Assembly (NCBI GenBank): GCA_014801865.1
Contig: JAAVDH010000039.1
Coordinates: forward strand, 3,657 to 67,656
From: Bacteroides sp.
GTDB lineage: Bacteria; Bacteroidota; Bacteroidia; Bacteroidales; Muribaculaceae
Reading direction: 5' to 3'
DNA length: 64,000 nucleotides
Positions 39,078-60,967 of the stretch are shown here, in pieces (position 1 is the first letter of the stretch; every line of letters starts with the position of its first letter). The notes below the pieces were generated by a model. It was not told the DNA's origin. It did no database searches and saw only the letters and a list, made by a program, of their open reading frames with translations. The position numbers were made by a program, and so were the translations under genes.

Positions 39078-39136
39078 TTTTTCGACTATTTTTGACATTA
39101 TTTCGACCCTAAAGAGGGTGTGTGACCGTAATTTCG
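39078..39136 (+). promoter_or_regulatory. Putative HTCS operator plus -7 element of the ROK-nagB-MFS-GH18 operon
   Basis: TTTTTCGAC-N6-TGAC-N4-TTTCGACCC (21-bp period), then TAATTTCG at 39129. The same motif lies upstream of susC. Confidence 0.8.
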
Positions 39137-40177: not shown

Positions 40178-40924
40178 ATGAAGATTACTGTAACGAACGA
40201 CGAAAGCGTATTTGACTGCACAGCGGCATCGCGCATAGTCAATCAGATTTGTGCTAAACCCTCGAGTGTTATCGGTCTGTCGACCGGACGCACTACGGGC
40301 AATATACATCGCCTTGTGTGCAAAATGCATGAAGAGGCGGACTTTGATGTGACCGATGTGACTTTCTTCGGTCTTGATGAGGTGACCAACGTAGATAGGG
40401 AATATAGCGGAGCTTGCTACAAAATGCTGCGCACAGAGATAATCGAGTCGCTCGGAGTGGATGAAGACCACTTCCTGATGCTCCCCACAAAGTCGGATGA
40501 TTTCGAGCGTGAATGCAGAGAATTTCGCTCGGAACTCAGCCGCAGAGGTGGTATAGACCTTCTTATATTGGGTCTTGGAGAGAATGGTCATCTTGGATTC
40601 AATCAGCCCGGTTCGCCTCTGAACGGCACGGCGTGGGTGGCTTCGATGGATGAGCGCCTTGAGGAGCGTATACGCCGTGAGACGGGTACTCCCGCTGAAA
40701 CGGATTTAGGCGGCGTGACTCTCGGTATCAGAGATATAATGCATGCCCGCAGGATAGTGCTCGTGGCCAAGGGTGAGAATAAGCGTGAGATTGTGAAGCG
40801 TATGCTCACCGGAGAGATAAGCAGTGAGTGCCCAGCTTCGGTGCTTCAGCTTCATCCCGACTGTGAGTTTCTGTTAGACGCCGCCGCGGCAGCAGACATC
40901 AATGTATGTACATTAAGAAATTAA
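40178..40924 (+). CDS. nagB: Glucosamine-6-phosphate deaminase-like protein
   Basis: GLSTGRT, GLDE, GLGENGHLGFNQPG, TLGI and PASVLQLH motifs. Confidence 0.88.
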   Translation: MKITVTNDESVFDCTAASRIVNQICAKPSSVIGLSTGRTTGNIHRLVCKMHEEADFDVTDVTFFGLDEVTNVDREYSGACYKMLRTEIIESLGVDEDHFLMLPTKSDDFERECREFRSELSRRGGIDLLILGLGENGHLGFNQPGSPLNGTAWVASMDERLEERIRRETGTPAETDLGGVTLGIRDIMHARRIVLVAKGENKREIVKRMLTGEISSECPASVLQLHPDCEFLLDAAAAADINVCTLRN

Positions 40925-44214: not shown

Positions 44215-44274
44215 TTTTTCGACCTTTAATGACGGTTTTTCGACCCCGGCAGGGAGCTTGGAGGGCTAAATTTG
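44215..44274 (+). promoter_or_regulatory. Putative HTCS operator plus -7 element of the susC operon
   Basis: TTTTTCGAC-CTTTAA-TGAC-GGTT-TTTCGACCC, then TAAATTTG at 44267. Confidence 0.8.
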
Positions 44275-44311: not shown

Positions 44312-47300
44312 ATGAAACTCAGATTCATCATGCTGATTTTCGCGCTATGCAGCATCCTCGGGATGACAGCCCAGCAACTTTCGATAAGTGGCGTGGTTGT
44401 AGACCCCGAAGGTGAACCTCTGCCCGGCGTAAGCGTCATTGTTCAGGGTACGTCCAACGGTACGGCTACGAATATCGACGGTAAATTTAATATCAAGGCC
44501 GCCACAGGTGAGCATCTCCTTTTCTCGTATATAGGATATGATACGGAGAAAGTAGCAGTAAAGGCGGGTAACACTAATCTTAAAGTGGTACTTAACGAGA
44601 GCAGTGAGGTGCTTGACGAAGTAGTGGTAATCGGCTACGGCGTGCAGAAGAAGAAACTCGTCACCGGTGCTACGGTACAGGTAAAGGGCGATGAGATCGC
44701 AGCCCGCAACACTGTGAGCCCCATAGGCGCTCTTCAGGGTCAGACTCCGGGTGTGAACATCATGTCTATGGGCGGTAAACCCAACTCAGGCTTTAAGGTG
44801 AATATCCGCGGTGTCGGAACCAACGGCGACTCAGACCCCATCGTGGTAGTTGACGGTCTTGTAGGTACCCTCAGCAATCTCAATGAGCTGAACCCCGGCG
44901 ATATCGAGTCGATAGATATCCTCAAGGACGCTGCCTCAACGGCTATTTACGGTGCCCGCGCCGCTAACGGTGTGATTCTCGTCACCACCAAGCATGGCTC
45001 GGAGGGCAAGACCAATATCACATTCGATGCATACGTGGGCTGGCAGAACATAGCCAAGCGTCCTCAGATGCTAAACGCTCAGGAGTATATGTATATATAT
45101 GACGTGGCCAGAATGTATGAGGGCAATGCTCCCGTAGACTGGGCGTCACTCATACCCGAACGCTATTACAATATGCTTCAGGAGGGTTGGACCGGAACAG
45201 ACTGGCTTGATCTGATGATAGGTAAGGACGCTCCTCAGCAGAGCTACAACCTCGGTGTGTCAGGCGGCAGCCAGATGGGTAGCTACGCCATCGGCCTCGG
45301 CTATACCTCACAGGAGGGTGTGATGCTCCGCGACTATATCAACTCAAAGTTTGAGCGCGTGACAGCACGTATCAATTCAGACTGGAACGTAGTCAAGCAC
45401 GGCAAGCGCAATGTGCTTAAGTTTGGCGAAAATCTCATGCTGTCGTTCAACAACTCTAACGGCATGGACGCCGTGAGCACCGGTGGCGCATGGAGCAATA
45501 CCGTACGTCAGGCCCTCAAGGCATCGCCTCTCTTTACCTGCTATGATGAAAACGGCGACATCGTGAAGGGTGCCAGCTGGCTCAATGACTCTCAGATGAA
45601 CCCCGTGAGAGGTGCTACCCGCGGCGGTATCGACAACTGCAACAGCAAGTATTATTCAGCCCGCGGTAACTTCTATCTCCAGTTAGAGCCGATAGATAAC
45701 CTCGTGCTCCGTTCAAATCTCGGATTCGGCTATAGCGGCAACACTTCGCGCAGCTACAGCACACCTTATAATGACGCTCCCTTCGGTTCTGCTACAGTGG
45801 ACCGCATCAGCCAGAGCTCAGGCAACTACTATTCATGGAGCTGGGAAAACACCCTCTCATACAGCTTTGACGTAAACCTCAACCATATCACAGCCCTCAT
45901 CGGTACATCAGCCGAGAAGTGGGGTTACGGCGAGGGCCTGTCAGCATCGCGTGTAGGCAACACCTTCGGCGACTGGCTCCACGCATATATCAGCAACGGC
46001 ACATCGCTGGCTACCGATCCCGGAGCATGGGATATGAGCGGATGGCCCAGCAGCCCCGGAGCCATCAACTCATACTTCGGACGTCTGACCTATGACTACG
46101 ACTCACGCTATATGGCTACCGCCACTCTCCGTGCCGACGGTTCGTCAAACTTCGCAAGAGGTCACCGCTGGGGTTACTTCCCCTCATTCAGCGCCGGCTG
46201 GAATATCTCGCAGGAATCATTCATGGAATCGACCCACGACTGGCTCAATCAGCTTAAGCTCCGCGCAAGCTGGGGTCAGAACGGTAATGCCAACATCGCC
46301 AACTTCCAGTATCTCGCCACGGTATATGTAGGTGGCGCCGACTATTTCTTCGGTGACGATAAGGTAAATAAGGTAATCGGTTCGTACCCCAACAAGATTG
46401 CCAACCCCGACCTTTCTTGGGAACGCTCAGACCAGTGGAATGCCGGTATCGACATGAGCATGTTCAACTCTAAGCTGACCCTTAACCTCGACTGGTATCG
46501 CAAGACCACCAAGGACTGGCTCGTAAACGCTCCTATCCTCGCTTCATACGGTACGGGTGCTCCCGTCATCAACGGTGGCGATGTGCGTAACCAGGGTCTG
46601 GAATTTGCCGCCAACTGGCGTTCTAATATCGGTGAGTTCAGCTACTCTGTAGGCGCCAACGTAGCCTGGAACAGAAACAAAGTGACCCGTCTGGCCAATG
46701 ACCAGGGCGTAATCAACGGTCCCGGTGATGCAGTGCTTCAGAACTCTACCTACATATCACGTATCGAGGTAGGCCATCCTATCGGCTTCTTCTATGGCTA
46801 CAAGACCCTCGGTGTATTCCAGAACAAGGAGCAGATCAACAACTACCGTAATGCTGACGGCAACATGATTATGCCCACAGCCGTGCCCGGTGACCTTATC
46901 TTCTTTGACCGCGACGGTGACGGACAGATATCTGACAACGATAAGATGGAAATCGGTGATCCTCATCCCGACGTGACCCTCGGCATCAACATCCAGCTCT
47001 TCTACAAGGGCTTCGACCTCGGAGCCAACGGTTATGGCGCATTCGGCCAGCAGATAGCCAACAACTATCGTGATCACACTTCATCGGGCTATGATAACTG
47101 GACTTACAACCTTGCTTCACAGGTATGGCACGGTGAAGGCACCTCAAACCGCTATCCCCGTCCCTCGACCTCAAGCCATCAGAACTGGGCGTACATCTCT
47201 GACATTTATGTAGACAATTCAGACTACTTCCGTCTTCAGAGCCTGACTCTCGGCTACGACTTCAAGGCCCTCTGTAAGAAGATGCCCCTGTCACAGTGTC

Positions 47301-47470
47301 GTCTCTACGTGAGCGCAACCAATCTGTTTACAATCACCAAGTACAAAGGCTTCGATCCCGAAATCGGTACTGACGGCAACTGGGGCGGTACACCCTGGGT
47401 GCAGGGCGTTGACCAGGGCTTCTATCCCGGCAACCGTACATTCCTCATTGGTGTAAACATTAAATACTAA
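44312..47470 (+). CDS. susC: SusC/RagA TonB-dependent transporter
   Basis: CarboxypepD_reg-like N-domain, DEVVVIGYG, LKDAASTAIYGARAANGVILVTTK, RADGSSNF and LSWE motifs. Confidence 0.97.
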   Translation: MKLRFIMLIFALCSILGMTAQQLSISGVVVDPEGEPLPGVSVIVQGTSNGTATNIDGKFNIKAATGEHLLFSYIGYDTEKVAVKAGNTNLKVVLNESSEVLDEVVVIGYGVQKKKLVTGATVQVKGDEIAARNTVSPIGALQGQTPGVNIMSMGGKPNSGFKVNIRGVGTNGDSDPIVVVDGLVGTLSNLNELNPGDIESIDILKDAASTAIYGARAANGVILVTTKHGSEGKTNITFDAYVGWQNIAKRPQMLNAQEYMYIYDVARMYEGNAPVDWASLIPERYYNMLQEGWTGTDWLDLMIGKDAPQQSYNLGVSGGSQMGSYAIGLGYTSQEGVMLRDYINSKFERVTARINSDWNVVKHGKRNVLKFGENLMLSFNNSNGMDAVSTGGAWSNTVRQALKASPLFTCYDENGDIVKGASWLNDSQMNPVRGATRGGIDNCNSKYYSARGNFYLQLEPIDNLVLRSNLGFGYSGNTSRSYSTPYNDAPFGSATVDRISQSSGNYYSWSWENTLSYSFDVNLNHITALIGTSAEKWGYGEGLSASRVGNTFGDWLHAYISNGTSLATDPGAWDMSGWPSSPGAINSYFGRLTYDYDSRYMATATLRADGSSNFARGHRWGYFPSFSAGWNISQESFMESTHDWLNQLKLRASWGQNGNANIANFQYLATVYVGGADYFFGDDKVNKVIGSYPNKIANPDLSWERSDQWNAGIDMSMFNSKLTLNLDWYRKTTKDWLVNAPILASYGTGAPVINGGDVRNQGLEFAANWRSNIGEFSYSVGANVAWNRNKVTRLANDQGVINGPGDAVLQNSTYISRIEVGHPIGFFYGYKTLGVFQNKEQINNYRNADGNMIMPTAVPGDLIFFDRDGDGQISDNDKMEIGDPHPDVTLGINIQLFYKGFDLGANGYGAFGQQIANNYRDHTSSGYDNWTYNLASQVWHGEGTSNRYPRPSTSSHQNWAYISDIYVDNSDYFRLQSLTLGYDFKALCKKMPLSQCRLYVSATNLFTITKYKGFDPEIGTDGNWGGTPWVQGVDQGFYPGNRTFLIGVNIKY

Positions 47471-47478
47471 TATCCGCA

Positions 47479-49260
47479 ATGAAACTCAATAAAATAATAA
47501 GCAGCCTCGCTATAGCCGCGCTGCTTACAGGTTGCTCGGAGAGCTTTCTGGATACCGACAACCTTACCTCAAAAGACTCAAGCAACTTCCCGGCGAACAT
47601 TACCGACGCCGAGGAGATAGTGACCGGTATCTATCGCCCCGTGATGGGTGATGCCGATAATCCTGCCAATAATGTGATGTTCGTAGCCGAGCTTATGAGC
47701 GACGAACGCTTCGGTGGCGGCGGTAAGGATGACGGCGCCGTGCAGTCAGTGGCATACTACAAGAAGATGAGCGACAATCAGTACTCAGGCCTCTGGAGCC
47801 GCTGCTACGAAGGTATCTACCGTTGTAATTACCTCCTCTCCGTGGAGGGTCAGATAGACTGGGCCGGCGATGAAGAGACCCGTGGCAGAGTCATGGGCGA
47901 AGGTTACTTCATGCGTGCATATTACTACTTCGACCTGCTGCGTCTGTTCGGCAATGTGCCCATGCCTCTTACTCCCGAACCTGCCAATCTGCCTCAAGCT
48001 ACTCCCGAGGATGCTTTCGGTCAGGTAGCATCAGACCTTCTGAACGCTATCAACCTGCTCCCCGAAAAGAAACATGCCGGAGTCAATGGCGTAGGCACTG
48101 ACGGCCACGCTACCCGCTGGGCTGCCGAGGCTCTTCTGGCGCGTGTGTTCCTGTTCTACACCGGTGTATACGAGAAGGAATCGATTACTCTGGCCGAAGA
48201 TGGCGGCACTCTGACCAAGCAGGATGTAATCCGTCATCTCGAAGACTGTATCGAAAATTCCGGCCACGACCTTGCCGCAAAGTTCGGCGACCTATGGGCC
48301 TACTCAGCCGCAGGTGACTACTGGATCAATGAGAAGTATGGCTATAGCTGGCTGGGCGACTGTGCCGGATGGCAGGGCTGGGAAGGCCAGACCGCCGGTT
48401 ACCGCGACAATCCCGAGACGGTGTTTGCCATCAAGCATGCCTATGGCTCGCAGTACTACGGACGTAACCTCACCGTGCTGTTCTTCAGCCCCCGTTATCA
48501 GGATGCCGACAACCCCAATAGCGACGGCGACGGCTGGGGTGGTGTCTACCCCTTCGGTACAGGCTGGGGCGGTGGTACAATCACTCCCAATATCTACAAC
48601 ACATGGCCTTCTGACGACCCTCGCCGCAAATCGTCAATCCTCAATATGGATGATCCCGAAGAGGGTATGACATATCATGACAATGGCGGCCACCAGGTAG
48701 AAGATACCCACATGTTTAACAAGAAGTATATCGCTATCAACGTTCACACCGAAAAGATGGTGTCAAAGGATTCTCAGAACGGTCCCGGCGCAGTGGCTCT
48801 CTACTGGTATTGCTACCCTGAAATCATGGATACCGACAATGACTACATGTCATGTAACTTCATGGACGAGATTGCTATACGTTTCGCCGACGTGCTTCTG
48901 ATGCACTCCGAACTGACCGCTACCGCCGAGGGTATCAACCGAGTGCGCAGCCGTGTAGGTCTTGATGCTGTGGCATACTCTGATGAGAATCTCCGCAACG
49001 AACGTCGTTGGGAGCTGGCCTTCGAGGGCATACGCTTCTTTGACCTCAAGCGCTGGCATCTGCTCAACCTCGTTGACGAACACCGTACCGGTATAGAAGC
49101 CATGTGTGACGGTAACATGCGCACCGTTTCTGTGCCTCACCGTCCTGAGACCAAGGGCCTTCTGCCTATCCCCGACGATGAAATCAAGAAGTCAAACGGT
49201 GTACTCGTACAGAACGCCGGTTGGAGTTCCTCTGAGGGTAACTTTACAAGTCCCTACTAA
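47479..49260 (+). CDS. susD: SusD/RagB glycan-binding lipoprotein
   Basis: Lipobox LTGC; GEGYFMRAYYYFDL, IRFADVLL and NERRWELAFEGIRFFDLKRW motifs. Confidence 0.96.
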   Translation: MKLNKIISSLAIAALLTGCSESFLDTDNLTSKDSSNFPANITDAEEIVTGIYRPVMGDADNPANNVMFVAELMSDERFGGGGKDDGAVQSVAYYKKMSDNQYSGLWSRCYEGIYRCNYLLSVEGQIDWAGDEETRGRVMGEGYFMRAYYYFDLLRLFGNVPMPLTPEPANLPQATPEDAFGQVASDLLNAINLLPEKKHAGVNGVGTDGHATRWAAEALLARVFLFYTGVYEKESITLAEDGGTLTKQDVIRHLEDCIENSGHDLAAKFGDLWAYSAAGDYWINEKYGYSWLGDCAGWQGWEGQTAGYRDNPETVFAIKHAYGSQYYGRNLTVLFFSPRYQDADNPNSDGDGWGGVYPFGTGWGGGTITPNIYNTWPSDDPRRKSSILNMDDPEEGMTYHDNGGHQVEDTHMFNKKYIAINVHTEKMVSKDSQNGPGAVALYWYCYPEIMDTDNDYMSCNFMDEIAIRFADVLLMHSELTATAEGINRVRSRVGLDAVAYSDENLRNERRWELAFEGIRFFDLKRWHLLNLVDEHRTGIEAMCDGNMRTVSVPHRPETKGLLPIPDDEIKKSNGVLVQNAGWSSSEGNFTSPY

Positions 49261-49285: not shown

Positions 49286-50245
49286 ATGAAAATCCAATCA
49301 ATCATAAGCCTTGGCGTCGCTCTGGGTATAGGACTGTCATCATGTATCCATACTCAGGTAGATGACAATCATGAAGCCTTTAAGAATCAGATGCTATCTG
49401 ATAGCCAGAAAGAGGCTCTTTCACAGCAGTTTGCCGCTGCTTTCAGATATGAGAACGGCGAGAACCATTCAAATAAGGTGACTGTAATAAACAACAGCGG
49501 ATATGACTGCCGCCTTGACTACATGGTGGGCACATTGATGCTCGGCAGTGGCAAAGACAATACGGTAGACGTCGTGGTGCCCTTTGCCGGCGACCTCACA
49601 TTCACTGCTACAGTGCTTTACGACGGTGCATATATCGATGTTGCAATCCCTGTCCATGTAGATGATCTTGACAATGACCTTGACCCGCTTTTCGTGGCTC
49701 TTACCGATGGCACAGCCGAAGGCAAGACCTGGGAATGGTGGGTAGGCTACGACTACGAGAACGGTAACTACTCCTACGTCGACGGCTCATGGGGCTGCGT
49801 AGGTGGCGGCGGTTACGGATGGTCTGCAACCGGTCCTAACTGGGTCTGCTATGAAGTAGGTCAGGAAGATGAGTGGACAGGCCAGAAGGTGACCATGGAT
49901 GAATGGGTGAAATTTGACCTTGACGGTGGTCCTAATGTAACAGTCCACTACAGCGACGGCACTGAGAAGAAGGGAACCTTCGCTCTCACCTCGGGCACGA
50001 CTCCCGAAAAGGCAGCGCTTGGCTGGACCGGTACAATGAAGCTTACCGTAGACCTTCCCCACCAGATTAACAACAGCCAGTATAGTTGGTATCTTGACCT
50101 TCCCGCGGTATTTGACGTGGTACTTACCTCTGATGATCCCGACCATCTGATTCTGATAGCTCCCGGTGGTGGTGGCGCACACACTATCTGTGACGATAGC
50201 TGGGGTATCAGTTCTACCCACTGGACTTTCCAGGTTAAAAAGTAA
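49286..50245 (+). CDS. Surface lipoprotein, putative SGBP-B (SusE-positioned glycan-binding protein)
   Basis: Lipobox LSSC, Trp/Tyr/Gly-rich, directly after susD. Confidence 0.75.
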   Translation: MKIQSIISLGVALGIGLSSCIHTQVDDNHEAFKNQMLSDSQKEALSQQFAAAFRYENGENHSNKVTVINNSGYDCRLDYMVGTLMLGSGKDNTVDVVVPFAGDLTFTATVLYDGAYIDVAIPVHVDDLDNDLDPLFVALTDGTAEGKTWEWWVGYDYENGNYSYVDGSWGCVGGGGYGWSATGPNWVCYEVGQEDEWTGQKVTMDEWVKFDLDGGPNVTVHYSDGTEKKGTFALTSGTTPEKAALGWTGTMKLTVDLPHQINNSQYSWYLDLPAVFDVVLTSDDPDHLILIAPGGGGAHTICDDSWGISSTHWTFQVKK

Positions 50246-50514: not shown

Positions 50515-50568
50515 AGGAGTATATTATACTCTAACATAAGATATCTCTTAGGATATCGCCATTTGCTT

Positions 50569-52929
50569 ATGTTACTATCATCACTTTTGCTATTGCTCGG
50601 ATGTATGCTTTCGTTGCCGGGAACAGTAGATACCGCCCGTTCGCTCGAGGCGGAGGCCGCTGTGAAACCGGTGCTGGAGGAGTGTGTGCTCCACGCGGGC
50701 GACAGCATTATTTCATTTGATGTAGACCCACGGGGAGGACGTGCCAAGGGACATCCCTCTGATCCGGATTATGCGGTCTACGGTCACAAGTCGGTATATT
50801 TCGACTTGGGTGGCCGCTCTATCGAGGATTACAACCGTCTCGAATTCATCATCACTCCCGAATGTCCCGGCCTCAGGGTGATTAATCTCACCGTGGGCTT
50901 TGAAAATGCCTCGGCTGTGGGCAAAGGGTATAACGCTCCGGTAGGGGAGCATCTTATTCACCTCGACAACGGCAGGGAGAACCACTGTTACCTTGAGGTG
51001 GCCGATCTTCGGCGCGACAATATGAGCGGACTCCGCTTTACGGTGACTCTTAAGGGCGCCGACCTAAATGTCAAAGGGGAGTCGAAGATTCATATCAAAA
51101 GAATAGCGGCACAGCGTGTGCCATATACAGAGCAGATAAGCGGTTGGGCTCCTCAGTCTGACCGTATCATCTACTCTATGAGCGGCTATGCGGCCGACGG
51201 AAAAAAGACGGCAATAGTAAGTTGCGACCGTCTGAAGAAGGATAAGGAGTTTATTCTGCGTGATGCCGATACGCGACGTGTGGTTCTTGAAGGTAAATCC
51301 GAAGTGCAGTCTACCACAACAGGACGCTATGGCGTGATAGATTTCAGCAGCGTTGACCGCCCGGGCCGTTATCTGCTTGAAGCTGGCGGACTGACCACAG
51401 ATACGTTTACTATAGGTTGTGACAGTCAGCTTTGGGATGAGTCGTGTGGCAAAGTTCTCAATTTTATCTACAGTATGCGATGCGGATACCCGGTGTTTGG
51501 CGTCCACTCTATGTGCCATACCGACCTGTTCAGTGTACATAATGGGGTGAGTCGCTCTTACGCGGGTGGTTGGCACGATGCCGGTGACCTCTCGCAGCAG
51601 ACTCTCCAGACTGCCGATGTCGTTTACTCTCTGCTTGAACTCTATGACCGGAAGCGCGACTCAGATCCCGCCTTCGCTTCGCGTCTCAGAGAGGAGGCCT
51701 TGTGGGGACTCGACTTCATATTACGTACACGATATGGCGACGGTTACCACGCCAGTAGTATGGGACTGCTGATATGGACCGACGGGGTCATGGGTAGCCA
51801 TGACGATATAACCACCGTAAGAGTGCAGAACGCTTCGTTTGACAACTATCTCTACGCGGCCTATGAGGCTTATGCGGCCAAGATACTTGCCGATGACAGT
51901 GCTTTCGCCACTTACCTTACCCAGGTAGCTCAGGAAGATTATGACTTCGCTTGCGAGAAGTTCAGGGAAAGCGGGTTCGGAGGATGGATTTCGCCCTACG
52001 AGCATACTTACTGCACAAGCGAGAGTCAGCACATGGCCTCGGCAAGCTGGGCGGCTTCGATGCTTTATGATCTTACAGGCAATCCTGACTATGCCGGTGA
52101 TGCTGTCAATTATGCACGCTACGTTCTCGACTGCCGATGCACGGTGCCGGTGGGCAAAGAGGAACTTAGCGGATTCTTCTACCGCACACCGGAGAAAAAA
52201 TCGGTGGTACACTTCATTCACCAGTCGCGCGAGCAGGTCTACATGCAGGCTTTTGAGGCCTTGTGCCGTACCCAACCTACGCATAGCGACAAGCCACAGT
52301 GGTATGACGCTATCTGCGATTACGGCCGGTATCTTAAGGCCATTATGAAGTATACCGCTCCCTACGGTATGTTGCCGAGCGGCATATACCATGAGGATGA
52401 GCCCTCCGATACTGATGCATTCTTCGCGCTCCATCTGTTTCCGCCGTCTGACGCCAAGGAGCGTTTTGCCACGCAGCGCAAGCATGGAGTAGATGTAGGC
52501 GACGGCTATTTCGTGAAGCGTTTCCCAGTGTGGTTCAATATCTATAACGGCAATCTTGCCGTGCACACCTCTATGGGTAAGTCAGCGGCAATATGTGCCA
52601 AGTGTATGCAGGATGATACACTTATGGATATAGCCCGCGAACAGCTCTACTGGATTGTGGGTAAGAATCCTTTCGCTCAGTCATTGATTTATGGCGAGGG
52701 TCATCGCTATCCTGACCTGAACAATTTCTCTTCAGGACGTATTACAGGGGCAATGCCTGTAGGTATCCGTAGTCTTGACGACAGTGACGAGCCATACTGG
52801 CCCCAGTTTAATTGTGCTTGCTACAAGGAGGTCTGGGTCACCTCTGCCGGAAAATGGCTATCTTTAGTAGCCGAAACTGACGGGTTTGCTGAAAACGGCT
52901 CTCAGCCGCTATACTCTAAGGCTGAGTAA
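50569..52929 (+). CDS. Glycoside hydrolase family 9 (exo-beta-glucosaminidase-like candidate)
   Basis: Signal peptide, Ig-like domain (SGYAADGKKTA), GGWHDAGD, WIVGKNP, C-terminal YKEVW acid. Confidence 0.85.
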   Translation: MLLSSLLLLLGCMLSLPGTVDTARSLEAEAAVKPVLEECVLHAGDSIISFDVDPRGGRAKGHPSDPDYAVYGHKSVYFDLGGRSIEDYNRLEFIITPECPGLRVINLTVGFENASAVGKGYNAPVGEHLIHLDNGRENHCYLEVADLRRDNMSGLRFTVTLKGADLNVKGESKIHIKRIAAQRVPYTEQISGWAPQSDRIIYSMSGYAADGKKTAIVSCDRLKKDKEFILRDADTRRVVLEGKSEVQSTTTGRYGVIDFSSVDRPGRYLLEAGGLTTDTFTIGCDSQLWDESCGKVLNFIYSMRCGYPVFGVHSMCHTDLFSVHNGVSRSYAGGWHDAGDLSQQTLQTADVVYSLLELYDRKRDSDPAFASRLREEALWGLDFILRTRYGDGYHASSMGLLIWTDGVMGSHDDITTVRVQNASFDNYLYAAYEAYAAKILADDSAFATYLTQVAQEDYDFACEKFRESGFGGWISPYEHTYCTSESQHMASASWAASMLYDLTGNPDYAGDAVNYARYVLDCRCTVPVGKEELSGFFYRTPEKKSVVHFIHQSREQVYMQAFEALCRTQPTHSDKPQWYDAICDYGRYLKAIMKYTAPYGMLPSGIYHEDEPSDTDAFFALHLFPPSDAKERFATQRKHGVDVGDGYFVKRFPVWFNIYNGNLAVHTSMGKSAAICAKCMQDDTLMDIAREQLYWIVGKNPFAQSLIYGEGHRYPDLNNFSSGRITGAMPVGIRSLDDSDEPYWPQFNCACYKEVWVTSAGKWLSLVAETDGFAENGSQPLYSKAE

Positions 52930-52964: not shown

Positions 52965-53774
52965 ATGAAAATTTTAAAAAACATACTGGCATTATTTGCC
53001 ATCGCAATATCTCTTTGTGCTTCTGCTCAGGGCAGTGACTACCCTGCAAATTATGCCCGCGCCCCTCGTTTTAAGGCGCTCCTGGTTTATTCTGACACGG
53101 CAGAGCCGGCTCATGTAGACTTCGCTAATGATGCCGTTGACTTTTTCAAGCGTCTCACAGTAGGCGACGGGTGGATTCTCGATACTTCAACCACTTTCGC
53201 AGGCTACAGCTACGAACGTCTCAAGGAGTATAACATGCTCATTGTAATCAATATCTCTCCGGCCCCCGGCGCAGAGCGTGAAGCCTTTGAGAAGTATATG
53301 GAGAATGGCGGAGGCTGGCTCGGTTTTCATGCCGCCGGTTACACTGACCGTTCGACCGATTGGGCGTGGTTCAACCGATTCCTCGGTTGCGGTAATTTCT
53401 ATTGCAACAACTGGCCTCCGCAGCCCGTACTGCTGACTCTCGACAATACAACGTGTGATATCACACGCAATCTGCCCGCAGAGTTCGTTGCTCCCGAGAG
53501 TGAGTGGTATCAGTTCAATCCTTCACCTCGTGAGAACGCTGATGTGGAGATACTTGCTTCGATATCTCCCAAGAATTATCCGCTGGGCATCAAGGATGTG
53601 ATAAGCTTCGGTGACTTCCCTATAGCGTGGCGCAACAAGAATTACCGAATGGTATATCTTAACTACGGTCACGGCGACAAGGAGTTTACTGACGCTACGC
53701 AGAATCTCATGACCGTAAATGCTTTCCGCTACGTGGCAAGTCATGCTCCCGAAGGTAATCCTTTTAATAAGTAA
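52965..53774 (+). CDS. Stand-alone secreted ThuA-like domain protein
   Basis: Signal peptide ASA|Q; GGGWLGFHAA, SEWY, DFPIAW and YGH, parallel to the GH18 C-domain. Confidence 0.85.
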   Translation: MKILKNILALFAIAISLCASAQGSDYPANYARAPRFKALLVYSDTAEPAHVDFANDAVDFFKRLTVGDGWILDTSTTFAGYSYERLKEYNMLIVINISPAPGAEREAFEKYMENGGGWLGFHAAGYTDRSTDWAWFNRFLGCGNFYCNNWPPQPVLLTLDNTTCDITRNLPAEFVAPESEWYQFNPSPRENADVEILASISPKNYPLGIKDVISFGDFPIAWRNKNYRMVYLNYGHGDKEFTDATQNLMTVNAFRYVASHAPEGNPFNK

Positions 53775-53779
53775 GAGAA

Positions 53780-55039
53780 ATGAATAAGGGAATTTCAGTT
53801 TTTACTATGGTCATATCACTCGCTACTGTCGCCTGCACCGGGGGCAGTGGCGAGTACGCCTCTTCGGAAAAGAACTTTCTGCATGTCGACGGGCATAATA
53901 TCGTAGACTCAAAGGGTGACACGTTCTATATCAAAGGTACCAATCTCGGCAATTGGCTCAACCCCGAGGGATATATGTTTGGCTTTGCCAAGATTAATTC
54001 TGCCCGCAAAATCAATGAGGCGCTGTGTGAACTCGTAGGACCTACCGAGGCAGCACGCTTCTGGCAGGAGTTTAAGGATAATTATATCACGTCAGCCGAC
54101 TTTGAGTTTATATCCTCGACAGGAGCCAACACGGTCAGAGTACCGTTTCACTACAAGCTCTTCACTAATGAGGACTACATGGGGCTTAATGATGCTGAAG
54201 AAGGTTTCCGCCGCCTTGACAGTTGCGTGGTGTGGGCGCGCAATAATAATCTGCGCCTTATACTGGATATGCACGACTGCCCCGGCGGTCAGACCGGCGA
54301 TAATATTGACGATAGCTATGGTTATCCATGGCTCATGACTGACACTGTGGCTCAGGAGCAGTTTATAGACATCTGGGCAAAGATAGCCGATTATTACGCC
54401 GACGAGGATGTGATACTCGGTTATGAGCTTGCCAACGAACCTGTGGCTACTTACTGGGAAGGTGCCGAACGCGACTCGCTCAATGCCGCCCTTGAACCAT
54501 TGTATAAGCGTGCTGTGGCTGAAATCCGTAAGCACGACGCCAATCATATAGTATTGTTAGGCGGTCCGCAGTGGAACAGCTATTTCGGTAATTTTACCGA
54601 CTGGACCTTTGATGATAACATCATGTATACCTGCCACAGATATGGCGGCGACGCAACACGTGAGGCCATCGACGAGTACATATCATTCCGTGATAAAACC
54701 AACCTACCTATGTATATGGGTGAGATCGGCCATAATACGGATGAATGGATGAGTAACTTTGTCGATGTAATGCGACAGAATAATATCGGTTACACTTTCT
54801 GGCCTTACAAGAAGATTGGCGACAGCTCCATGACCGGGGTACAGGCTCCTGAGGAATGGGGCAGTCTGGTGGAGTATGTAGAGGCTCCACGAACTTCTTA
54901 CGGAGAAATCCGTGAGGCCAGAAAACTTTGTTCTCAGCAGCAGGGCAGGGCATTGCTGAATGAATTTATAGAAAATGCCAAAGCCGAAAAAATGCTCAGA
55001 CACGATAACTACATATCGGCTATCCAACTCAATAAGTAA
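53780..55039 (+). CDS. Glycoside hydrolase family 5 lipoprotein
   Basis: Lipobox TVAC; GTNLGNWLNPEGYM, LDMH, NEP acid/base, GEIG nucleophile, WPYK. Confidence 0.92.
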   Translation: MNKGISVFTMVISLATVACTGGSGEYASSEKNFLHVDGHNIVDSKGDTFYIKGTNLGNWLNPEGYMFGFAKINSARKINEALCELVGPTEAARFWQEFKDNYITSADFEFISSTGANTVRVPFHYKLFTNEDYMGLNDAEEGFRRLDSCVVWARNNNLRLILDMHDCPGGQTGDNIDDSYGYPWLMTDTVAQEQFIDIWAKIADYYADEDVILGYELANEPVATYWEGAERDSLNAALEPLYKRAVAEIRKHDANHIVLLGGPQWNSYFGNFTDWTFDDNIMYTCHRYGGDATREAIDEYISFRDKTNLPMYMGEIGHNTDEWMSNFVDVMRQNNIGYTFWPYKKIGDSSMTGVQAPEEWGSLVEYVEAPRTSYGEIREARKLCSQQQGRALLNEFIENAKAEKMLRHDNYISAIQLNK

Positions 55040-55050
55040 GTTATTAGAAC

Positions 55051-57309
55051 ATGAAAACCAATCTTATCACTGCGGCACTCGTGGCGGCTATGTTTACGGC
55101 CACAGCATCTTTTGCCGATGTGCCTGCATATCTTGATGACTCTCTGCCGATAGAGGAGAGGGTGAATGACGCTTTGTCGAAAATGACGGTAGCTGAGAAG
55201 GTGGCTATCATCCATGCTCAGAGCAAATTCAGTTCTCCCGGTGTGCAACGTCTCGGCATACCAGGCGTATGGTGTACGGACGGCCCTCACGGTATTCGCC
55301 CCGATGTACTGTGGGACGAATGGGATCAGGCCGGCGCTACAAACGATTCGTGTGTGGCATTTCCAGCGCTGACCTGTCTCGCCGCCACATGGAATCCCGA
55401 GATGTCGTATCTCTATGGAAAGTCTATCGGTGAGGAAGCACGCTACAGAAACAAGAATGTGCTCCTCGGGCCGGGCGTTAATATCAACCGCACTCCTCTC
55501 AACGGACGTAATTTCGAGTACATGGGTGAGGACCCCTACCTGTCATCGCGTATAGTGGTGCCCTATATCAAGGGTGTGCAGGAGAATGGTGTCGCAGCGT
55601 GTGTCAAGCACTATGCTCTCAATAATCAGGAGGTGGATCGTGCGTTTGTCAATGTACTGGTCGATGACCGCACTCTTCACGAAATATATCTTCCTGCCTT
55701 TAAGGCGGCGGTGACCGAGGGCGAAGCCTGGGCCATCATGCCCGGATATAATAAGTATAATGGTGAACATGCGTGTGAAAATCCGGTGCTTCTGCTTGAC
55801 ATTCTTAAGGGAGACTGGGGATTTGACGGAGTAGCCATAAGTGACTGGGGAGCTGTGCATAACACAGATAAAGTGGCGCAGAGCGGACTGGATATGGAGT
55901 TCGGTTCGTGGACCAACGGTCTCAACTGGGGTGCGAGCAACGCTTATGACAATTACTATCTGGCCAAACCCTATGAGAAGATGATACTTGACGGCACACT
56001 CCCGATGGATGGCCTTGACGACAAGGCCCGCAGAGTGCTGAGACTGATAATGCGCACTGAGATGAACCGCCATCGTCCTTACGGCTCGCTCAATAGCGAT
56101 GAGCATTATGCCGCCGCACGTAAGATAGGCGGTGAGGGTATAGTGTTGTTGAAAAACCAGAACGACCTTCTGCCCGTCAGCTCCGAAGTCAGAAAGATAC
56201 TTGTAGTAGGGGAGAACGCCATAAAAATGATGACCGTAGGCGGAGGTTCTTCGTCGCTGAAAGTACAGCGTGAGATGCTTCCTCTTGACGGGATAAAGGC
56301 CAAGGCGGCCGACTGCGGTATAGAGGTGGCCTATGAGCGCGGCTATGTGGGTGATGTCACCGGAGAGTACAACGGCGTGACCACAGGTCAGAATCTCAAT
56401 GATGACCGTTCGGCCGAGCAGCTGATCGCCGATGCCGTTAAGGCAGCCAAGGAGGCTGATATGGTGATTTTTATCGGTGGACTTAATAAGGCTGATCATC
56501 AGAATGCAGAAGCAACCGACCGCGAGAGTTTCGCTCTACCCTACAATCAGGATCGTGTGATCGAGGCTCTTTACGAGGCCAATCCCCGTCTGGTGGTGAT
56601 GAATCTTACCGGCAACGCTTATTCGATGCCCTGGGTTAATAAGGTTCCGGCAATAGTTCAGGGATGGTATATCGGCTCTGAGGCGGGCAATGCCATTGCC
56701 GATGTGCTGTTTGGCGACGTGAATCCTTCCGGCAAACTTCCTATGACGTTTGCTAAGGAACTTAAGGATTATGCCGCTCATGCTGAGGCTGATTCAACGA
56801 TGTATCCCGGTGTAGGGGGCGATGTGATATATAAGGAGGGGTTGAACGTCGGCTACCGGTATACGGACCGCCTTAAGCCCTCGCGTATCAACTATGCTTT
56901 TGGCCACGGACTGAGTTATACCGACTTTAAGCTCGGTAAGCCGGAGTTGTCCGTCGCCGGAGATGAGAGTGACGTGAGATATACCGTGACTGTTCCCGTA
57001 ACGAATATCGGTGGCGTAGATGGCGCGGAGGTCGTTCAGGCGTATGTGCGCGATGTCAAGAGTAGCGTTGCCCGACCGGAGAAAGAGCTTAGGGCTTTTG
57101 CTAAGGTAAAGGTGGCTCCCGGACAGACCGAAGAGGCTGTTCTGACATTCGACCGCAACGCTTTTGCATACTATGACCCGGACGATGCGAAGTGGACTCT
57201 TGAAGCCGGCAAGTTTGAGATACTTATAGGTACGTCATCTGACAACATTGTGGCTAAAGTGCCGGTTACCGTCGGCAAGTCGCAGAAGTGGGCCGACTCT
57301 GAGCGCTAA
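55051..57309 (+). CDS. Glycoside hydrolase family 3 beta-glucosidase-like (with Fn3 domain)
   Basis: DGPHG, GRNFEYMGEDP, KHY, ISDWG nucleophile, PSGKLPMTF and FGHGLSYT motifs. Confidence 0.95.
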   Translation: MKTNLITAALVAAMFTATASFADVPAYLDDSLPIEERVNDALSKMTVAEKVAIIHAQSKFSSPGVQRLGIPGVWCTDGPHGIRPDVLWDEWDQAGATNDSCVAFPALTCLAATWNPEMSYLYGKSIGEEARYRNKNVLLGPGVNINRTPLNGRNFEYMGEDPYLSSRIVVPYIKGVQENGVAACVKHYALNNQEVDRAFVNVLVDDRTLHEIYLPAFKAAVTEGEAWAIMPGYNKYNGEHACENPVLLLDILKGDWGFDGVAISDWGAVHNTDKVAQSGLDMEFGSWTNGLNWGASNAYDNYYLAKPYEKMILDGTLPMDGLDDKARRVLRLIMRTEMNRHRPYGSLNSDEHYAAARKIGGEGIVLLKNQNDLLPVSSEVRKILVVGENAIKMMTVGGGSSSLKVQREMLPLDGIKAKAADCGIEVAYERGYVGDVTGEYNGVTTGQNLNDDRSAEQLIADAVKAAKEADMVIFIGGLNKADHQNAEATDRESFALPYNQDRVIEALYEANPRLVVMNLTGNAYSMPWVNKVPAIVQGWYIGSEAGNAIADVLFGDVNPSGKLPMTFAKELKDYAAHAEADSTMYPGVGGDVIYKEGLNVGYRYTDRLKPSRINYAFGHGLSYTDFKLGKPELSVAGDESDVRYTVTVPVTNIGGVDGAEVVQAYVRDVKSSVARPEKELRAFAKVKVAPGQTEEAVLTFDRNAFAYYDPDDAKWTLEAGKFEILIGTSSDNIVAKVPVTVGKSQKWADSER

Positions 57310-57390
57310 CTTACTTATTTGAAAGTAAACAATGAGTTAGTGAGGTTCAAACGATATTTTGTATTATCTTTGAGTGACTTTTTCGAGTGA

Positions 57391-57448
57391 TTTTTGCTCT
57401 ATGTATCAAGAGTGTGTTAAGTTATATAACTGATACATAGAGCAAAAA
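57391..57448. repeat. Perfect 18-bp inverted repeat upstream of the NagX-like gene
   Basis: TTTTTGCTCTATGTATCA-N22-TGATACATAGAGCAAAAA, preceded by TATCTTTG (-7-like) at 57365. Confidence 0.75.
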
Positions 57449-57574
57449 CCGCCTTAAATGAGATAACTGCCTTAAATAAATAAGTAAGTGAGAAAAATAA
57501 ATGAATATATAAAACGAAGTCATTTTATTGTTCAAGTATTTTTATTCACCTATAACTCTTAGAACTTACTTAGT

Positions 57575-58714
57575 ATGATACCCGATAAGAAGAAGAAAAG
57601 CAGATTGCTCTCGCTTGATGTCATGCGTGGCATCACGATAGCTGGAATGATATTGGTTAATAACCCCGGCACTTGGAGCGATATCTACGCCCCTCTACGT
57701 CATGCCGAGTGGCATGGCCTGACACCGACTGACCTCGTGTTTCCGTTCTTTATGTTCATCATGGGCGTGTCGACTTACATGTCGCTGCGCAAGTATGATT
57801 TCCGTTTGTCATGGGCTGCTGTGTCGAAGATAACGAGACGCACAGCGGTGATATTTCTCATCGGCCTTATTCTGGCATGGATAGGATTGCTTGTGGGAGG
57901 CATAGCTTCGGGAGCAGCGCTGATTGACGCAGCGCTGTCGTTTGACCATATAAGGATTCTCGGCGTGTTGCCCCGACTGGCGCTTGCCTATGGAGTGGCT
58001 TCACTGGTAGCATTGGCGTGTCGCAACAGGTATTTGCCTGTCGTGGCTGTAGGGCTGCTTGTTGTCTATAGTGTGATACTGATTTTTGGTAATGGATTCG
58101 CCTTCTCTGAGGACAATGTTATAGCTGTAGTCGATCGTTGTGTGCTGGGCGAAAACCACATGTATACCGACTGGGTAGGGGGTGTGCGACTTCATTTTGA
58201 CCCTGAGGGTCTGTTGGGTATCATTCCCTCTGTGGCTCATGTGCTGATAGGTTTCATGGTAGGAGAGATGCTTATGAGCGATGGTGACAACAGTCGCCGT
58301 GCGCTGAAGGTGCTTATACTCGGCACAAGCCTTACCTTCGCGGGACTTCTGCTGAGTTACGGTATTCCCGTAAATAAAAAGATATGGTCGCCTACGTTTG
58401 TGCTGACCACCTGTGGACTGGCTTCGTCGTTGCTCGGTCTGCTTATCTATGTGATAGATGTAAGGAAGCATGCCGGGTGGTGTCGGTTCTTCGAGGTGTT
58501 TGGCGTTAATCCGTTGGCGCTGTATGTGCTGGCCACGGTGCTGAGTATTTATCCCGGGTGGATGGTGCAGGGTCCGATTATGGAGTCATGTATCATACCT
58601 CTCTGCTGCGGAAATATGAAGCTCGCCTCGCTGGTATTTGCCCTCCTGTTTGTCGGTATAATATGGCTTGCAGGTCTGCCGCTCTATAAGCGTAGAATCT
58701 ATATAAAAATCTAA
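57575..58714 (+). CDS. nagX: Heparan-alpha-glucosaminide N-acetyltransferase-like membrane protein (NagX / DUF5009 type)
   Basis: RLLSLDVMRG, MILVNNPG, LRHAEWHG (conserved His), DLVFPFF, DPEGLL and NKKIWSP motifs. Confidence 0.88.
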   Translation: MIPDKKKKSRLLSLDVMRGITIAGMILVNNPGTWSDIYAPLRHAEWHGLTPTDLVFPFFMFIMGVSTYMSLRKYDFRLSWAAVSKITRRTAVIFLIGLILAWIGLLVGGIASGAALIDAALSFDHIRILGVLPRLALAYGVASLVALACRNRYLPVVAVGLLVVYSVILIFGNGFAFSEDNVIAVVDRCVLGENHMYTDWVGGVRLHFDPEGLLGIIPSVAHVLIGFMVGEMLMSDGDNSRRALKVLILGTSLTFAGLLLSYGIPVNKKIWSPTFVLTTCGLASSLLGLLIYVIDVRKHAGWCRFFEVFGVNPLALYVLATVLSIYPGWMVQGPIMESCIIPLCCGNMKLASLVFALLFVGIIWLAGLPLYKRRIYIKI

Positions 58715-58747
58715 TAACCAATTTTCTGATAACCAATCTTTGCAGTG

Positions 58748-60967
58748 ATGAAAAGTAACATGAAACATCTGGGCGTGGCTTTCATGATGGCTACGGCCGT
58801 AGGTGCTTCGGCCGAGACTGTGGTGACCTGGAGCACTTTGGGCAACTCTGTGACGGCTGATGGAAAGCCTGTGTATACTCAGCGCTTTACTATCAATAGT
58901 GACAAGAATTTTGCACGTCTTGCGTTTAATCAGTTTGAGACTGATAAACAGCCTGTAGATGCCTCCGATTCTATAATAGAGATAGTACCGAGCTATTATG
59001 CCATAAAGTCACCTAAGTTTGCCGATGCCAAGGGCAAGACCGTGGTGGTCGATATAGTTACATCCGGTACATTCTCAAATATCTGCTTCGCCCCCGACGG
59101 AGTTCATCTGGTGAACAATGACGGCACGACCTCACCGGTGGAAATGAAGTGGGATAATATCATCGAGTCGCCTGAAATGTATTCCAACGGCAACTTTAAC
59201 CGCATGCCTTACGGCGACGCTTTATTTCTTCTGAATGAGCAGCGCAATCGTGGCGAGCAATTGGGTGCATACGATATAATACCTTCTTTTAAGGAGGTAA
59301 GCTTGACCGATGGCGCACCTACGGATGCTTCGGCATGTGAGGTGACAATTGTTGAGACAGAGAATCCTCAGCCCGACTGGATGCAGATAACCGTTGAAGG
59401 CGGACGCATCACCGCTAAGACCAACAATAAGGCATTGGCCCGTACGCGTATCAACAACCTTCTCAGCAGGGGAGGCATGCTCCCTGCGGCTGTAATCACC
59501 GATTATCCCGACTTCGGCTACCGCGGACTGATGATAGACATAGCCCGTAATTATCAGTCGCCTGAGGAGATGGAGCGCATACTGCAACTGATGAGCCGTT
59601 ATGGTTTTAATGTGCTCCACTTCCATATTGCCGACGATGAGGCGTGGCGCCTTGAAATACCCGGCCTCCCTGAACTGACTGACGTAGGAGGACGCCGCGG
59701 ATATACGCTCGACGGTAAGGACTTCCTGCCACAGATTTATTCAGGCGACGGAAACCCCGCTACGACAGGCAACAGCTCAAATGGATATTTCACCCGCACC
59801 GACTTTATCAATCTTCTTAAGAAGGCCGATGAATTGGGGATAAGAGTGATACCCGAAATAGAATCGCCGGGCCACGCGAGAGCCGCTATCGTGGCTATGG
59901 AAAATCGCCTCAGAAACACCGGTGATGACACCTATCGCCTGATGGATCCCGATGACAAATCGGTATACTCTTCGGCGCAGGACTATCACGACAACGTTAT
60001 GAATCTGGCCATGCCCGGTCCGATGCTCTTCATGACCAAGGTAGGCGAGGAGATAAAGCGTATGTACAGTGATGCCGGAGTTGAACTTCCCGCAATTCAT
60101 ATCGGTGGCGATGAGGTGGCTATGGGCGCATGGAAAGGCTCACCTATAGCTCAGGCGTATATGGCCGACCACGGTATTACCAATGAGCGCGACCTCCATC
60201 TTATATACGTGCGTGATATCGTTAAGGCCTATGACAAGCTCGGCATACCCGTATCGGGATGGCAGGAGATAGCCGTGGGCCACGATGAAGAGTTTAACAA
60301 CGAAGTGCGCCCCTACATCTATAGCGTGAATTGCTGGAGCACCTTAGGTGGCGAAAGTTCAGTGCCGGCACAGTCTGCCACAGCAGGTTATCCCACGGTA
60401 TTGAGCAACGTAGACCGCTTCTACATGGACTTGGTATATAACTTCCATCCTCAGGAAAGAGGCCTTACATGGGGTGGCGCCGTTGATGAATTTAAGTCAC
60501 TCGGAGGTTATCCCAAAGAACTCTGTCAGGTTGACGAAAATAGCTTCAAGAATGTCATAGGACTGTCAGGTCAGTTATTCAGCGAAACCGTCCGTTCGCC
60601 TCAGATGCTTGAGTCTTACCTGCTGCCCAAGATGCTTGGTCTTGCTGAAAGAGCATGGAACATGGATACTACCTACACCGAACCACGCTTCAATGCTGCC
60701 GTCAACCGCGAGATGCCCGTATGGAATCGTGAGGGCTATAACTTCCACGTAGGCCTGCCGGGAATCACTGTCAGGGATGGCTACATCATAATGAACGCCC
60801 CCTATCCTGATGTCGAGATACGCTACACTCTCGACGGATCCGAACCCACAGCCGAATCGCCCCTCTATACCGATCCGATTCGCTACTACGGTCAGGACGT
60901 ACGAGCCCGTGCTTTCCTCCCCCAATACGGCAAACACTCCCTCACCACCATCTACCTTCCCAAATAA
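58748..60967 (+). CDS. GH20 beta-N-acetylhexosaminidase with C-terminal Fn3-associated/chitobiase domain
   Basis: YRGLMIDIAR, HIADDEAWR, PEIESPGH, HIGGDE catalytic pair, RYTLDGSEP. Confidence 0.95.
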   Translation: MKSNMKHLGVAFMMATAVGASAETVVTWSTLGNSVTADGKPVYTQRFTINSDKNFARLAFNQFETDKQPVDASDSIIEIVPSYYAIKSPKFADAKGKTVVVDIVTSGTFSNICFAPDGVHLVNNDGTTSPVEMKWDNIIESPEMYSNGNFNRMPYGDALFLLNEQRNRGEQLGAYDIIPSFKEVSLTDGAPTDASACEVTIVETENPQPDWMQITVEGGRITAKTNNKALARTRINNLLSRGGMLPAAVITDYPDFGYRGLMIDIARNYQSPEEMERILQLMSRYGFNVLHFHIADDEAWRLEIPGLPELTDVGGRRGYTLDGKDFLPQIYSGDGNPATTGNSSNGYFTRTDFINLLKKADELGIRVIPEIESPGHARAAIVAMENRLRNTGDDTYRLMDPDDKSVYSSAQDYHDNVMNLAMPGPMLFMTKVGEEIKRMYSDAGVELPAIHIGGDEVAMGAWKGSPIAQAYMADHGITNERDLHLIYVRDIVKAYDKLGIPVSGWQEIAVGHDEEFNNEVRPYIYSVNCWSTLGGESSVPAQSATAGYPTVLSNVDRFYMDLVYNFHPQERGLTWGGAVDEFKSLGGYPKELCQVDENSFKNVIGLSGQLFSETVRSPQMLESYLLPKMLGLAERAWNMDTTYTEPRFNAAVNREMPVWNREGYNFHVGLPGITVRDGYIIMNAPYPDVEIRYTLDGSEPTAESPLYTDPIRYYGQDVRARAFLPQYGKHSLTTIYLPK

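Follow-up and report, generated by a model that had tools for sequence, protein, structure and literature searches.

Three described systems come close to the gene considered here: human HGSNAT, the bacterial protein NagX, and MurT of Tannerella forsythia (TfMurT). The gene encodes P0001, a predicted HGSNAT-fold membrane protein, and is followed by a gene for a glycoside hydrolase family 20 (GH20) enzyme, P0002, in a 64,000-nucleotide stretch of Muribaculaceae DNA (hereafter the window) from contig C39 of G000, a 1.88-Mb metagenome-assembled genome (MAG) that is 70.8% complete. In HGSNAT, H297 and D307 form the catalytic dyad and N286 holds the oxyanion; the diphosphate of coenzyme A (CoA) is bound by R275 and R345, the pore is gated by M282, F310 and F313, and the 6-OH and 3-OH groups of glucosamine (GlcN) are bound by R372 and E499 (Zhao et al. 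2024, PMC11199644). The acceptor in that structural work was methylumbelliferyl-beta-glucosamine (MU-beta-GlcN), HGSNAT itself does not transport its substrate, and its luminal domain and extra first transmembrane helix (TM1) are confined to higher metazoans (PMC11199644). The transmembrane acyltransferase (TmAT) fold conserves a DxxR motif in transmembrane helix (TMH) 1, FxxxxG in TMH2, an Arg in TMH3, a Gly in TMH6 and a Tyr in TMH9 (PMC12423673). A publication of 2025 described the kinship of DUF5009 proteins with HGSNAT and noted that none of these proteins had been tested.

NagX was proposed to acetylate periplasmic GlcN on the basis of fitness data from five bacteria, one of them a member of the Bacteroidota (Price et al. 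2022, PMC9007349). Cells depend on NagX, alongside NagA and a separate transporter, to grow on GlcN, but can grow on N-acetylglucosamine (GlcNAc) without it (PMC9007349), and the NCBIfam model NF046061 names it a GlcN N-acetyltransferase; an earlier sequence-only reading of the window, which called the function of NagX unsettled, was out of date on this point. TfMurT, on the other hand, has been called an importer of N-acetylmuramic acid (MurNAc) because an E. coli murP mutant reportedly grows on MurNAc only when MurT and MurK are both supplied (PMC5790795, PMC7670621). Its uptake of MurNAc is known only from this complementation (PMC5790795). NagX as a transmembrane GlcN acetyltransferase (PMC9007349), its NCBIfam naming and the DUF5009-HGSNAT kinship are therefore prior knowledge, and none of the papers in the library searched linked HGSNAT-like genes to polysaccharide utilization loci (PULs) or to GH20.

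We favour, with moderate confidence, the reading that P0001 is a periplasm-facing amino-sugar N-acetyltransferase. It is favoured because the catalytic, CoA-binding and GlcN-binding residues are complete, because the folds that P0001 resembles are those of acyltransferases only, because of the genetics of NagX, and because the core cluster of this type of locus already has an importer of the major facilitator superfamily (MFS). This reading overlaps in part with its two rivals, in which P0001 is a permease or an incidental neighbour of the genes around it.

Fold and active-site residues of P0001

P0001 is polytopic and contains PLRHAEWHGLTPTDLVFPFFMF (open reading frame translation). It matches the HGSNAT_cat family PF07786 (clan CL0316) with 32.1 bits, where the cut-off is 22, and phmmer aligns it with human HGSNAT chains at E 1.3e-23 and ~24% identity, over HGSNAT residues 266-619 only. 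The N-terminal luminal domain and extra TM1 of metazoan HGSNAT are missing from the 379-residue protein, which does not bar it from the catalytic family, since only higher metazoans have that domain. The sequence-only reading had recognised HGSNAT motifs in P0001, including the His of LRHAEWHG, and it was right to do so: in the phmmer alignment this residue, His43, stands opposite HGSNAT His297 (His269 in the short numbering). Every HGSNAT residue given a role in PMC11199644 has an identical counterpart in P0001 (HGSNAT/P0001: R275/R18, M282/M25, N286/N29, H297/H43, D307/D53, F310/F56, F313/F59, R345/R89, R372/R127, E499/E211, G514/G226). The conserved TmAT residues are likewise all present (D15/R18, F59/G64, R89, G226 and Y317, the last being the equivalent of HGSNAT Tyr611, the TMH9 Tyr of PMC12423673). 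N29, H43, D53, R18, R89 and R127 are invariant in all 65 full-length Bacteroidales homologues, whose pairwise identity goes down to about 30%, and E211 is altered in just one of the 65.

The fold agrees with the residues. An AlphaFold2 (AF2) model of P0001, built from a 32-sequence alignment, has a pLDDT of 87.8 and a pTM of 0.89, and it has the 10-TM core and central pore of the TmAT fold. In Foldseek searches with this model the top 15 matches were human HGSNAT (TMq 0.74-0.79; E 3e-14 at TMq 0.79) and the next was the acyltransferase GWT1, while no transporter fold scored above TM 0.23.

In the mechanism that we propose, P0001 would work in the inner membrane as a TmAT enzyme like HGSNAT and NagX, with cytoplasmic acetyl-CoA entering a pore from the inside (residues Asp15/Arg18, Arg89, Met25 and Tyr317). 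An amino sugar of gluco configuration would be bound by Arg127 and Glu211 on the periplasmic side, and its free 2-amino group would receive the acetyl group through the action of Asn29 and of the dyad His43-Asp53, so that GlcN would be turned into GlcNAc units. The GlcN acceptor could be free, for example after release by GH9, or could be the non-reducing end of partly deacetylated chito-oligosaccharides, from which GH20 would then remove the re-acetylated terminal GlcNAc. GH20 enzymes need the 2-acetamido group of their substrate, and since their catalysis is substrate-assisted, GlcNAc units would be the only ones that P0002 could remove. We infer both the acetyltransferase activity and its acceptor, monomer or oligomer end. 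The version in which oligomer ends are capped for GH20 is the more doubtful part of the proposal, and GH9, by possibly removing terminal GlcN directly, would make such capping unnecessary.

G000 has a second DUF5009 gene (C20:4205-5119; L106:1357-2466, minus strand), 27-31% identical to P0001, which stands alone between the gene for an ABC-F ATPase and rpoZ; similar genes are found in several species of the genus. Its product keeps the His and the Asp, and it probably has a different acceptor from P0001, because it has Gln at the position of Asn29 and no counterparts of Arg127 and Glu211. This divergent DUF5009 gene (C20) and the other TmAT genes of G000, an AT3 gene (C44) and a DUF418 gene (C18), were set aside as members of other families or as lacking the GlcN-site residues.

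The PUL and the P0001-GH20 junction

Profile searches of the window's open reading frames outline a single plus-strand PUL that runs from a hybrid two-component system (HTCS) regulator to GH20 (35070-60967; Table 1). It has the adjacent SusC and SusD, the regulator and the glycoside hydrolases on one strand by which Bacteroidota PULs are recognised, and P0001 and GH20 form its far end, with P0001 placed between GH3 and GH20. By its gene content this is a PUL of the chitin/chitosan type, because the GH18 is of chitinase type, the GH20 of chitobiase type and the GH9 nearest to exo-acting GH9 enzymes of Vibrio; a fungal wall is possibly its target. The best solved relatives of the GH18 are chitinases (5gzu, E 4e-79) and not endo-beta-N-acetylglucosaminidases. 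The GH5 resembles beta-glucanases, the GH3 looks like a beta-glucan enzyme, and the ROK kinase is most like glucokinases. Orthologues of the ROK, NagB and MFS genes occur in two related clusters, L135 and L187, at 66-83% identity.

The sequence-only reading had also proposed a parallel route through GH9. Among solved structures, the GH9 has its best matches in the exo-acting Vibrio enzymes 3h7l and 6gdt; these matches are weak (E 1e-8 to 1e-11) and near the scores of endoglucanases, and we rejected the GH9 as a proven exo-glucosaminidase.

Table 1. Features of the PUL and of P0001, with positions in the window
Feature	Coordinates	Strand	Basis
HTCS hybrid two-component regulator of the PUL	35070-39038	+	Reg_prop, Y_Y_Y, HisKA, HATPase, Response_reg, AraC HTH
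ROK kinase	39182-40156	+	Pfam match
NagB-like GlcN-6-P deaminase	40178-40924	+	Pfam match
MFS transporter	40943-42238	+	Pfam match
GH18 chitinase fused to ThuA-like domain	42222-43937	+	Pfam match
SusC	44312-47470	+	Pfam search
SusD	47479-49260	+	Pfam search
319-aa protein without family match in Pfam searches	49286-50245	+	
GH9	50563-52929	+	Pfam match
ThuA-like, stand-alone	52965-53774	+	Pfam match
GH5	53780-55039	+	Pfam match
GH3, BglX-like	55051-57309	+	Pfam match
AT-rich spacer between GH3 and P0001, 265 bp, 27% GC	57310-57574	+	Sequence
P0001, 379-aa HGSNAT-fold (DUF5009/TmAT) membrane protein	57575-58714	+	PF07786, fold, tree
Asn29 codon, partner of His43	57659-57661	+	Alignment
His43 codon, counterpart of catalytic HGSNAT His297	57701-57703	+	Alignment
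Asp53 codon, partner of His43	57731-57733	+	Alignment
P0002, GH20 beta-N-acetylhexosaminidase, chitobiase type	58745-60967	+	PF00728

The hexosaminidase that the sequence-only reading had placed 33 bp downstream of P0001 is indeed there. Its open reading frame opens at a GTG (58745), the likely start is the ATG at 58748, 33 bp past the P0001 stop codon, and the gap between the two same-strand genes is therefore 30-33 bp, in which no terminator-like site was found; P0001 and GH20 are probably co-transcribed. P0002 matches PF00728 (Glyco_hydro_20) at 241 bits and carries chitobiase C-terminal (CHB_HEX_C) domains, its best solved relatives being 9joq, Serratia chitobiase 1qba and Vibrio Nag2 6ezr. 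Its N-terminus is signal-peptide-like (...AVGASA/ET), without a lipobox Cys, and its catalytic motif is HIGGDE, with the pair D456/E457.

In the spacer upstream of P0001, two 18-bp arms (57391-57408 and 57431-57448) separated by a 22-nt loop form a perfect inverted repeat with no T run after it, and the RNA of the spacer is predicted to fold at -61.7 kcal/mol (z -4.2). This repeat occurs once in the genome, and P0001 has a GC content of 0.504 and a third-position GC (GC3) of 0.563, in line with the neighbouring genes; a recent foreign origin of P0001 was rejected on these grounds. Direct-repeat pairs of TTTCGAC, 21 bp apart and reminiscent of an HTCS operator, precede the ROK gene (39080-39107) and SusC (44217-44244), and the window holds 18 copies of the heptamer where 7.8 would be expected. 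The spacer between GH3 and P0001 lacks such a pair, and with it this sign of co-regulation with the PUL promoters. A scan for sigma-70 promoters, whose model does not cover those of Bacteroidota, gave no more sites than in shuffled sequence.

The GH18-ThuA fusion is kept at 60-62% identity in related chitin clusters (L187:2933-4654 and L135:1066-2763), and L184, a further locus, has a ThuA fragment of 82 aa immediately upstream of a gene from the P0001 subclade described below.

Relatives, neighbours and rival readings

Across the family, HGSNAT-like genes lie near GH20 more often than chance would have it. A GH20 gene was found within about 6 kb of 9 of 45 homologues from 37 sampled Bacteroidales genomes, a count that includes kin and so not only independent cases, where a rough chance expectation would be ~0.7 (from 161 GH20 matches in about 149 Mb). 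One PUL ends in SusC-SusD-x-x-GH20-HGSNAT-like (L136); in another locus the order is NagB-GH20-HGSNAT-like, beside a ROK regulator and SusC/SusD (L169); and in three more (L174, L175, L180) the GH20 lies on the divergent strand next to the HGSNAT-like gene. A member of the family, 40% identical, is divergently oriented to an orthologous HTCS-ROK-NagB-MFS-GH18ThuA cluster in a further species of the genus (L135). The neighbour need not be GH20: at L157:6654-10048 (G195, contig C2) a NAGLU/GH89 gene is followed after 18 bp by an HGSNAT-like gene and then by SusC/SusD. Such adjacency, however, fits acetylation followed by cleavage and cleavage followed by import alike.

Several other neighbourhoods of the family deserve mention. 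At L157, where GH92 and GH28 genes are nearby, NAGLU and the HGSNAT-like protein are the enzyme pair of the lysosomal HGSNAT-NAGLU step. At L134:3639-11174 (G008, same genus) an SGSH_C (N-sulphoglucosamine sulphohydrolase) sulfatase and a 1603-aa GH2 are followed after 8 bp by an HGSNAT-like gene, and at L133 a similar sulfatase is three genes away from one. Two related loci with members of clade A (below), L176:4820-16394 and L179:5049-13960, share a conserved set in which the HGSNAT-like gene is joined by genes for a ceramidase-like protein, a DegT-type aminotransferase and a GH20, L176 having in addition a GFO/IDH/MocA oxidoreductase and GH30, and L179 a GH92.

A number of observations weigh against the acetyltransferase reading, or against its tie to GH20. 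The particular P0001-GH20 pair was seen only in this genome among all those sampled. The best 80 matches to P0001 in species-representative genomes (55-64% identity, nearly all Muribaculaceae MAGs) have an adjoining GH20 in two cases, and other genes of the window's PUL do not adjoin them. Few species of the same genus have a close P0001 homologue, none above 60% identity, and the relatives of P0002 in the genus, at most 50% identical, have no HGSNAT-like neighbour where checked. The closest GH20 (73% identity, L187, a human-gut contig) lies in the order GH18 - GH18ThuA - ROK - NagB - MFS - GH3 - GH20, with no gene between GH3 and GH20; the ROK, NagB and MFS proteins of this locus are 76-83% identical to those of the window, and its GH3 differs, at 27% identity. 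Since the core chitin cluster, as L187 has it, includes an MFS importer and exists without P0001, we regard P0001 as an accessory gene that in this lineage has come to lie between GH3 and GH20.

The gene neighbours of the closest relatives point in the same direction. At least 66 of 77 scorable close relatives of P0001 are flanked by genes of a mur-type operon, with the order DUF4922 - SpoIID - AmpG-like MFS - NamZ exo-muramidase - FAD/Fe-S oxidase - HGSNAT-like - BadF-type kinase - SIS/MurQ-like - GDSL, which is the gene order of the T. forsythia ampG-ybbC-murT-murK-murQ operon (PMC5388701, PMC7670621). The operon kinase matches the structure of the T. forsythia MurNAc kinase (8ow9, E 5e-90). 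In these operons (L004-L083; annotated at L013:1655-13638) the gene between namZ and the murT-like gene encodes an FAD/4Fe-4S, D-lactate-dehydrogenase-like oxidase, which could oxidise the D-lactate released by MurQ. A maximum-likelihood tree of 66 homologues has two clades, A and B (branch support as SH-aLRT). Clade B includes the mur-operon genes, and P0001 is nested among them (SH-aLRT 96), forming a subclade with seven metagenomic relatives at 66-75% identity (SH-aLRT 100); clade A holds a subclade in which six of nine members have GH20 nearby. A single clade-specific substitution, the conservative V220/I, separates the P0001 subclade from the MurT-syntenic proteins, for which reason P0001 probably acts like MurT: most likely the chemistry of the two is the same, whatever MurT does. 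The reported complementation with TfMurT suggests uptake rather than acetylation (PMC5790795).

The stronger of the two rivals, which we consider possible though on balance unlikely, is that P0001 is a MurT-type permease for an N-acetylated sugar, either GlcNAc released by GH20 or MurNAc, which a cytoplasmic kinase would then phosphorylate without any acetyl transfer. Its place inside the MurT-syntenic clade, whose members are flanked by NamZ, the MurK-like kinase and the MurQ-like SIS protein, the rescue by TfMurT and MurK, and the lack of clade-specific changes at conserved sites other than V220/I all speak for it; a gene adjoining an exo-hexosaminidase suits import of the released sugar equally well, and there is no further transporter near NagB-GH20 in L169. 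A pure permease, however, would have no reason to keep the His-Asp pair, the Asn, both CoA-diphosphate Arg residues and the GlcN Arg and Glu in 65 homologues (E211 in 64 of 65). The full HGSNAT catalytic set was found in all the MurT-syntenic proteins examined, and this sits oddly with a pure transporter role. The P0001 model matches acyltransferases only, and HGSNAT, the enzyme it most resembles, is itself no substrate transporter (PMC11199644). The window's PUL already has an MFS importer adjoining the kinase and deaminase genes, and since the core chitin cluster thus has its own importer, a second would be redundant. P0001 is not in a mur operon, and homologues of MurK, MurQ, AmpG-like and SpoIID proteins were not found in the 70.8%-complete G000. 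The assignment of TfMurT itself to clade B, moreover, is based on synteny and a remark made in PMC9007349.

The weaker rival, that P0001 is a displaced peptidoglycan-salvage gene acting on cell-wall amino sugars, placed between GH3 and GH20 by accident and with no link to chitin or chitosan, draws on subclade members that stand alone in unrelated contexts (beside UvrC; after a LAM55-like gene; with a DEAD helicase and Na/H antiporter; with MetRS), a point that also tells against the acetyltransferase reading, on the absence of an HGSNAT-like gene from the closest GH20 locus, and on the AT-rich spacer, whose strong hairpin parts P0001 from GH3 and which has no HTCS operator-like repeats, but it seems improbable to us given the short same-strand gap to GH20 with no terminator-like site, the match of GC and GC3 to neighbouring genes, the other family lineage adjoining the orthologous chitin cluster of L135, and the several other lineages that adjoin GH20 far above chance.

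Nor is P0001, by its score, a NagX equivalog: in a full-length alignment to NF046061 it reaches 132.1 bits against an equivalog cut-off of 480, which also counts against the acetyltransferase reading. The Bacteroidales clade A members beside GH20 score higher (L169 and L174, 201 and 218 bits), although all remain below 480. A search of the MAG, 70.8% complete, did not find NagA (TIGR00221), the enzyme required to use GlcNAc as a source of carbon; among the 33 genomes of the genus with a completeness of 90% or more and a contamination of 5% or less, only 11 had a NagA match above its cut-off. Both facts are unfavourable to our reading as far as they go. We nevertheless set NagA aside as a discriminator, given the incompleteness of the MAG and its patchy presence in the genus, and because both the acetyltransferase and the permease readings need NagA equally. 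Many species of the genus carry GH20 and NagB despite the patchiness of NagA.

Taken together, the proposal of the sequence-only reading that GlcN ends are re-acetylated ahead of GH20 survives in part. The residues, the fold, the type of PUL and the adjacency to GH20 or GH89 elsewhere in the family are in its favour, whereas the pair is not conserved, the nearest relatives are of MurT type and the closest GH20 locus lacks the gene.

Significance and comparison with known systems

The locus sharpens a conflict over one widespread family, which has been taken both for a MurNAc transporter and for a transmembrane acetyltransferase. A broader idea, which we put forward tentatively and think less likely than acetyltransfer by P0001 as such, is that the Bacteroidales HGSNAT-fold proteins, "MurT" included, are periplasm-facing repair N-acetyltransferases for sugars that have lost an N-acetyl or N-sulfate group. 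If this were true, repair would let exo-glycosidases that need the N-acetyl group finish their work, GH20 in the window, GH89/NAGLU in L157 and NamZ in the mur operons, and the whole would parallel, in bacteria, the lysosomal SGSH-HGSNAT-NAGLU sequence and would have been recruited independently into several PULs; the assignment of MurT as a transporter would need revision. In the usual view a PUL is made up of hydrolases, transporters and binding proteins, and periplasmic re-acetylation at the expense of cytoplasmic acetyl-CoA would be an accessory step of a different kind. It would also account for the ability of gut Bacteroidales to deal with fungal or insect chitin that is partly deacetylated, with de-N-acetylated peptidoglycan and with de-N-sulfated host glycans. 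If the permease reading were true instead, P0001 would be an ordinary relocated transporter gene.

Human HGSNAT (PDB 8jkv, 8vkj, 8vlg) and P0001 share the same transmembrane fold (TMq 0.79) and have catalytic, acetyl-CoA-binding and GlcN-binding residues in common, and in the human system an exo-N-acetylglucosaminidase takes the next step, as we propose for GH20 after P0001. They differ in that P0001 would face the periplasm and not the lysosome, in their ~24% identity, in that acetyltransfer by P0001 is predicted, and in the substrate, which for HGSNAT is the alpha-GlcN of heparan sulfate and for P0001 would likely be beta-linked GlcN derived from chitin or chitosan. NagX of the Shewanella SO_3504 type is similar in size (about 370 aa), is homologous over its full length and also lies in an amino-sugar/chitin neighbourhood, and the chemistry proposed for it is the one predicted for P0001, conversion of periplasmic GlcN to GlcNAc with cytoplasmic acetyl-CoA; NagX, however, is proposed to act on the free monomer, with genetics as the basis, while P0001 belongs to the MurT-like clade instead. 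The place that TfMurT (Tanf_08375) occupies in the ampG-ybbC/namZ-murT-murK-murQ operon is filled in Muribaculaceae and other Bacteroidales by the nearest relatives of P0001, but P0001 itself is in a chitin PUL, whereas TfMurT is described as a MurNAc importer.

As a whole, the window's PUL resembles the chitin loci of Bacteroidota, such as ChiUL of Flavobacterium johnsoniae, and the Vibrio chitobiose operon; the features in common are SusC/SusD, GH18, GH20, GlcN-6-P deaminase, an MFS transporter and a sugar kinase. The Vibrio chitobiose operon includes a GH9 (VC0615) of a type found beside GlcN-handling genes (PMC6096475), and the window, too, has a GH9. What sets the window's PUL apart from the known chitin loci is its additional content, the ThuA-like domains, GH5, GH3 and the HGSNAT-like gene.

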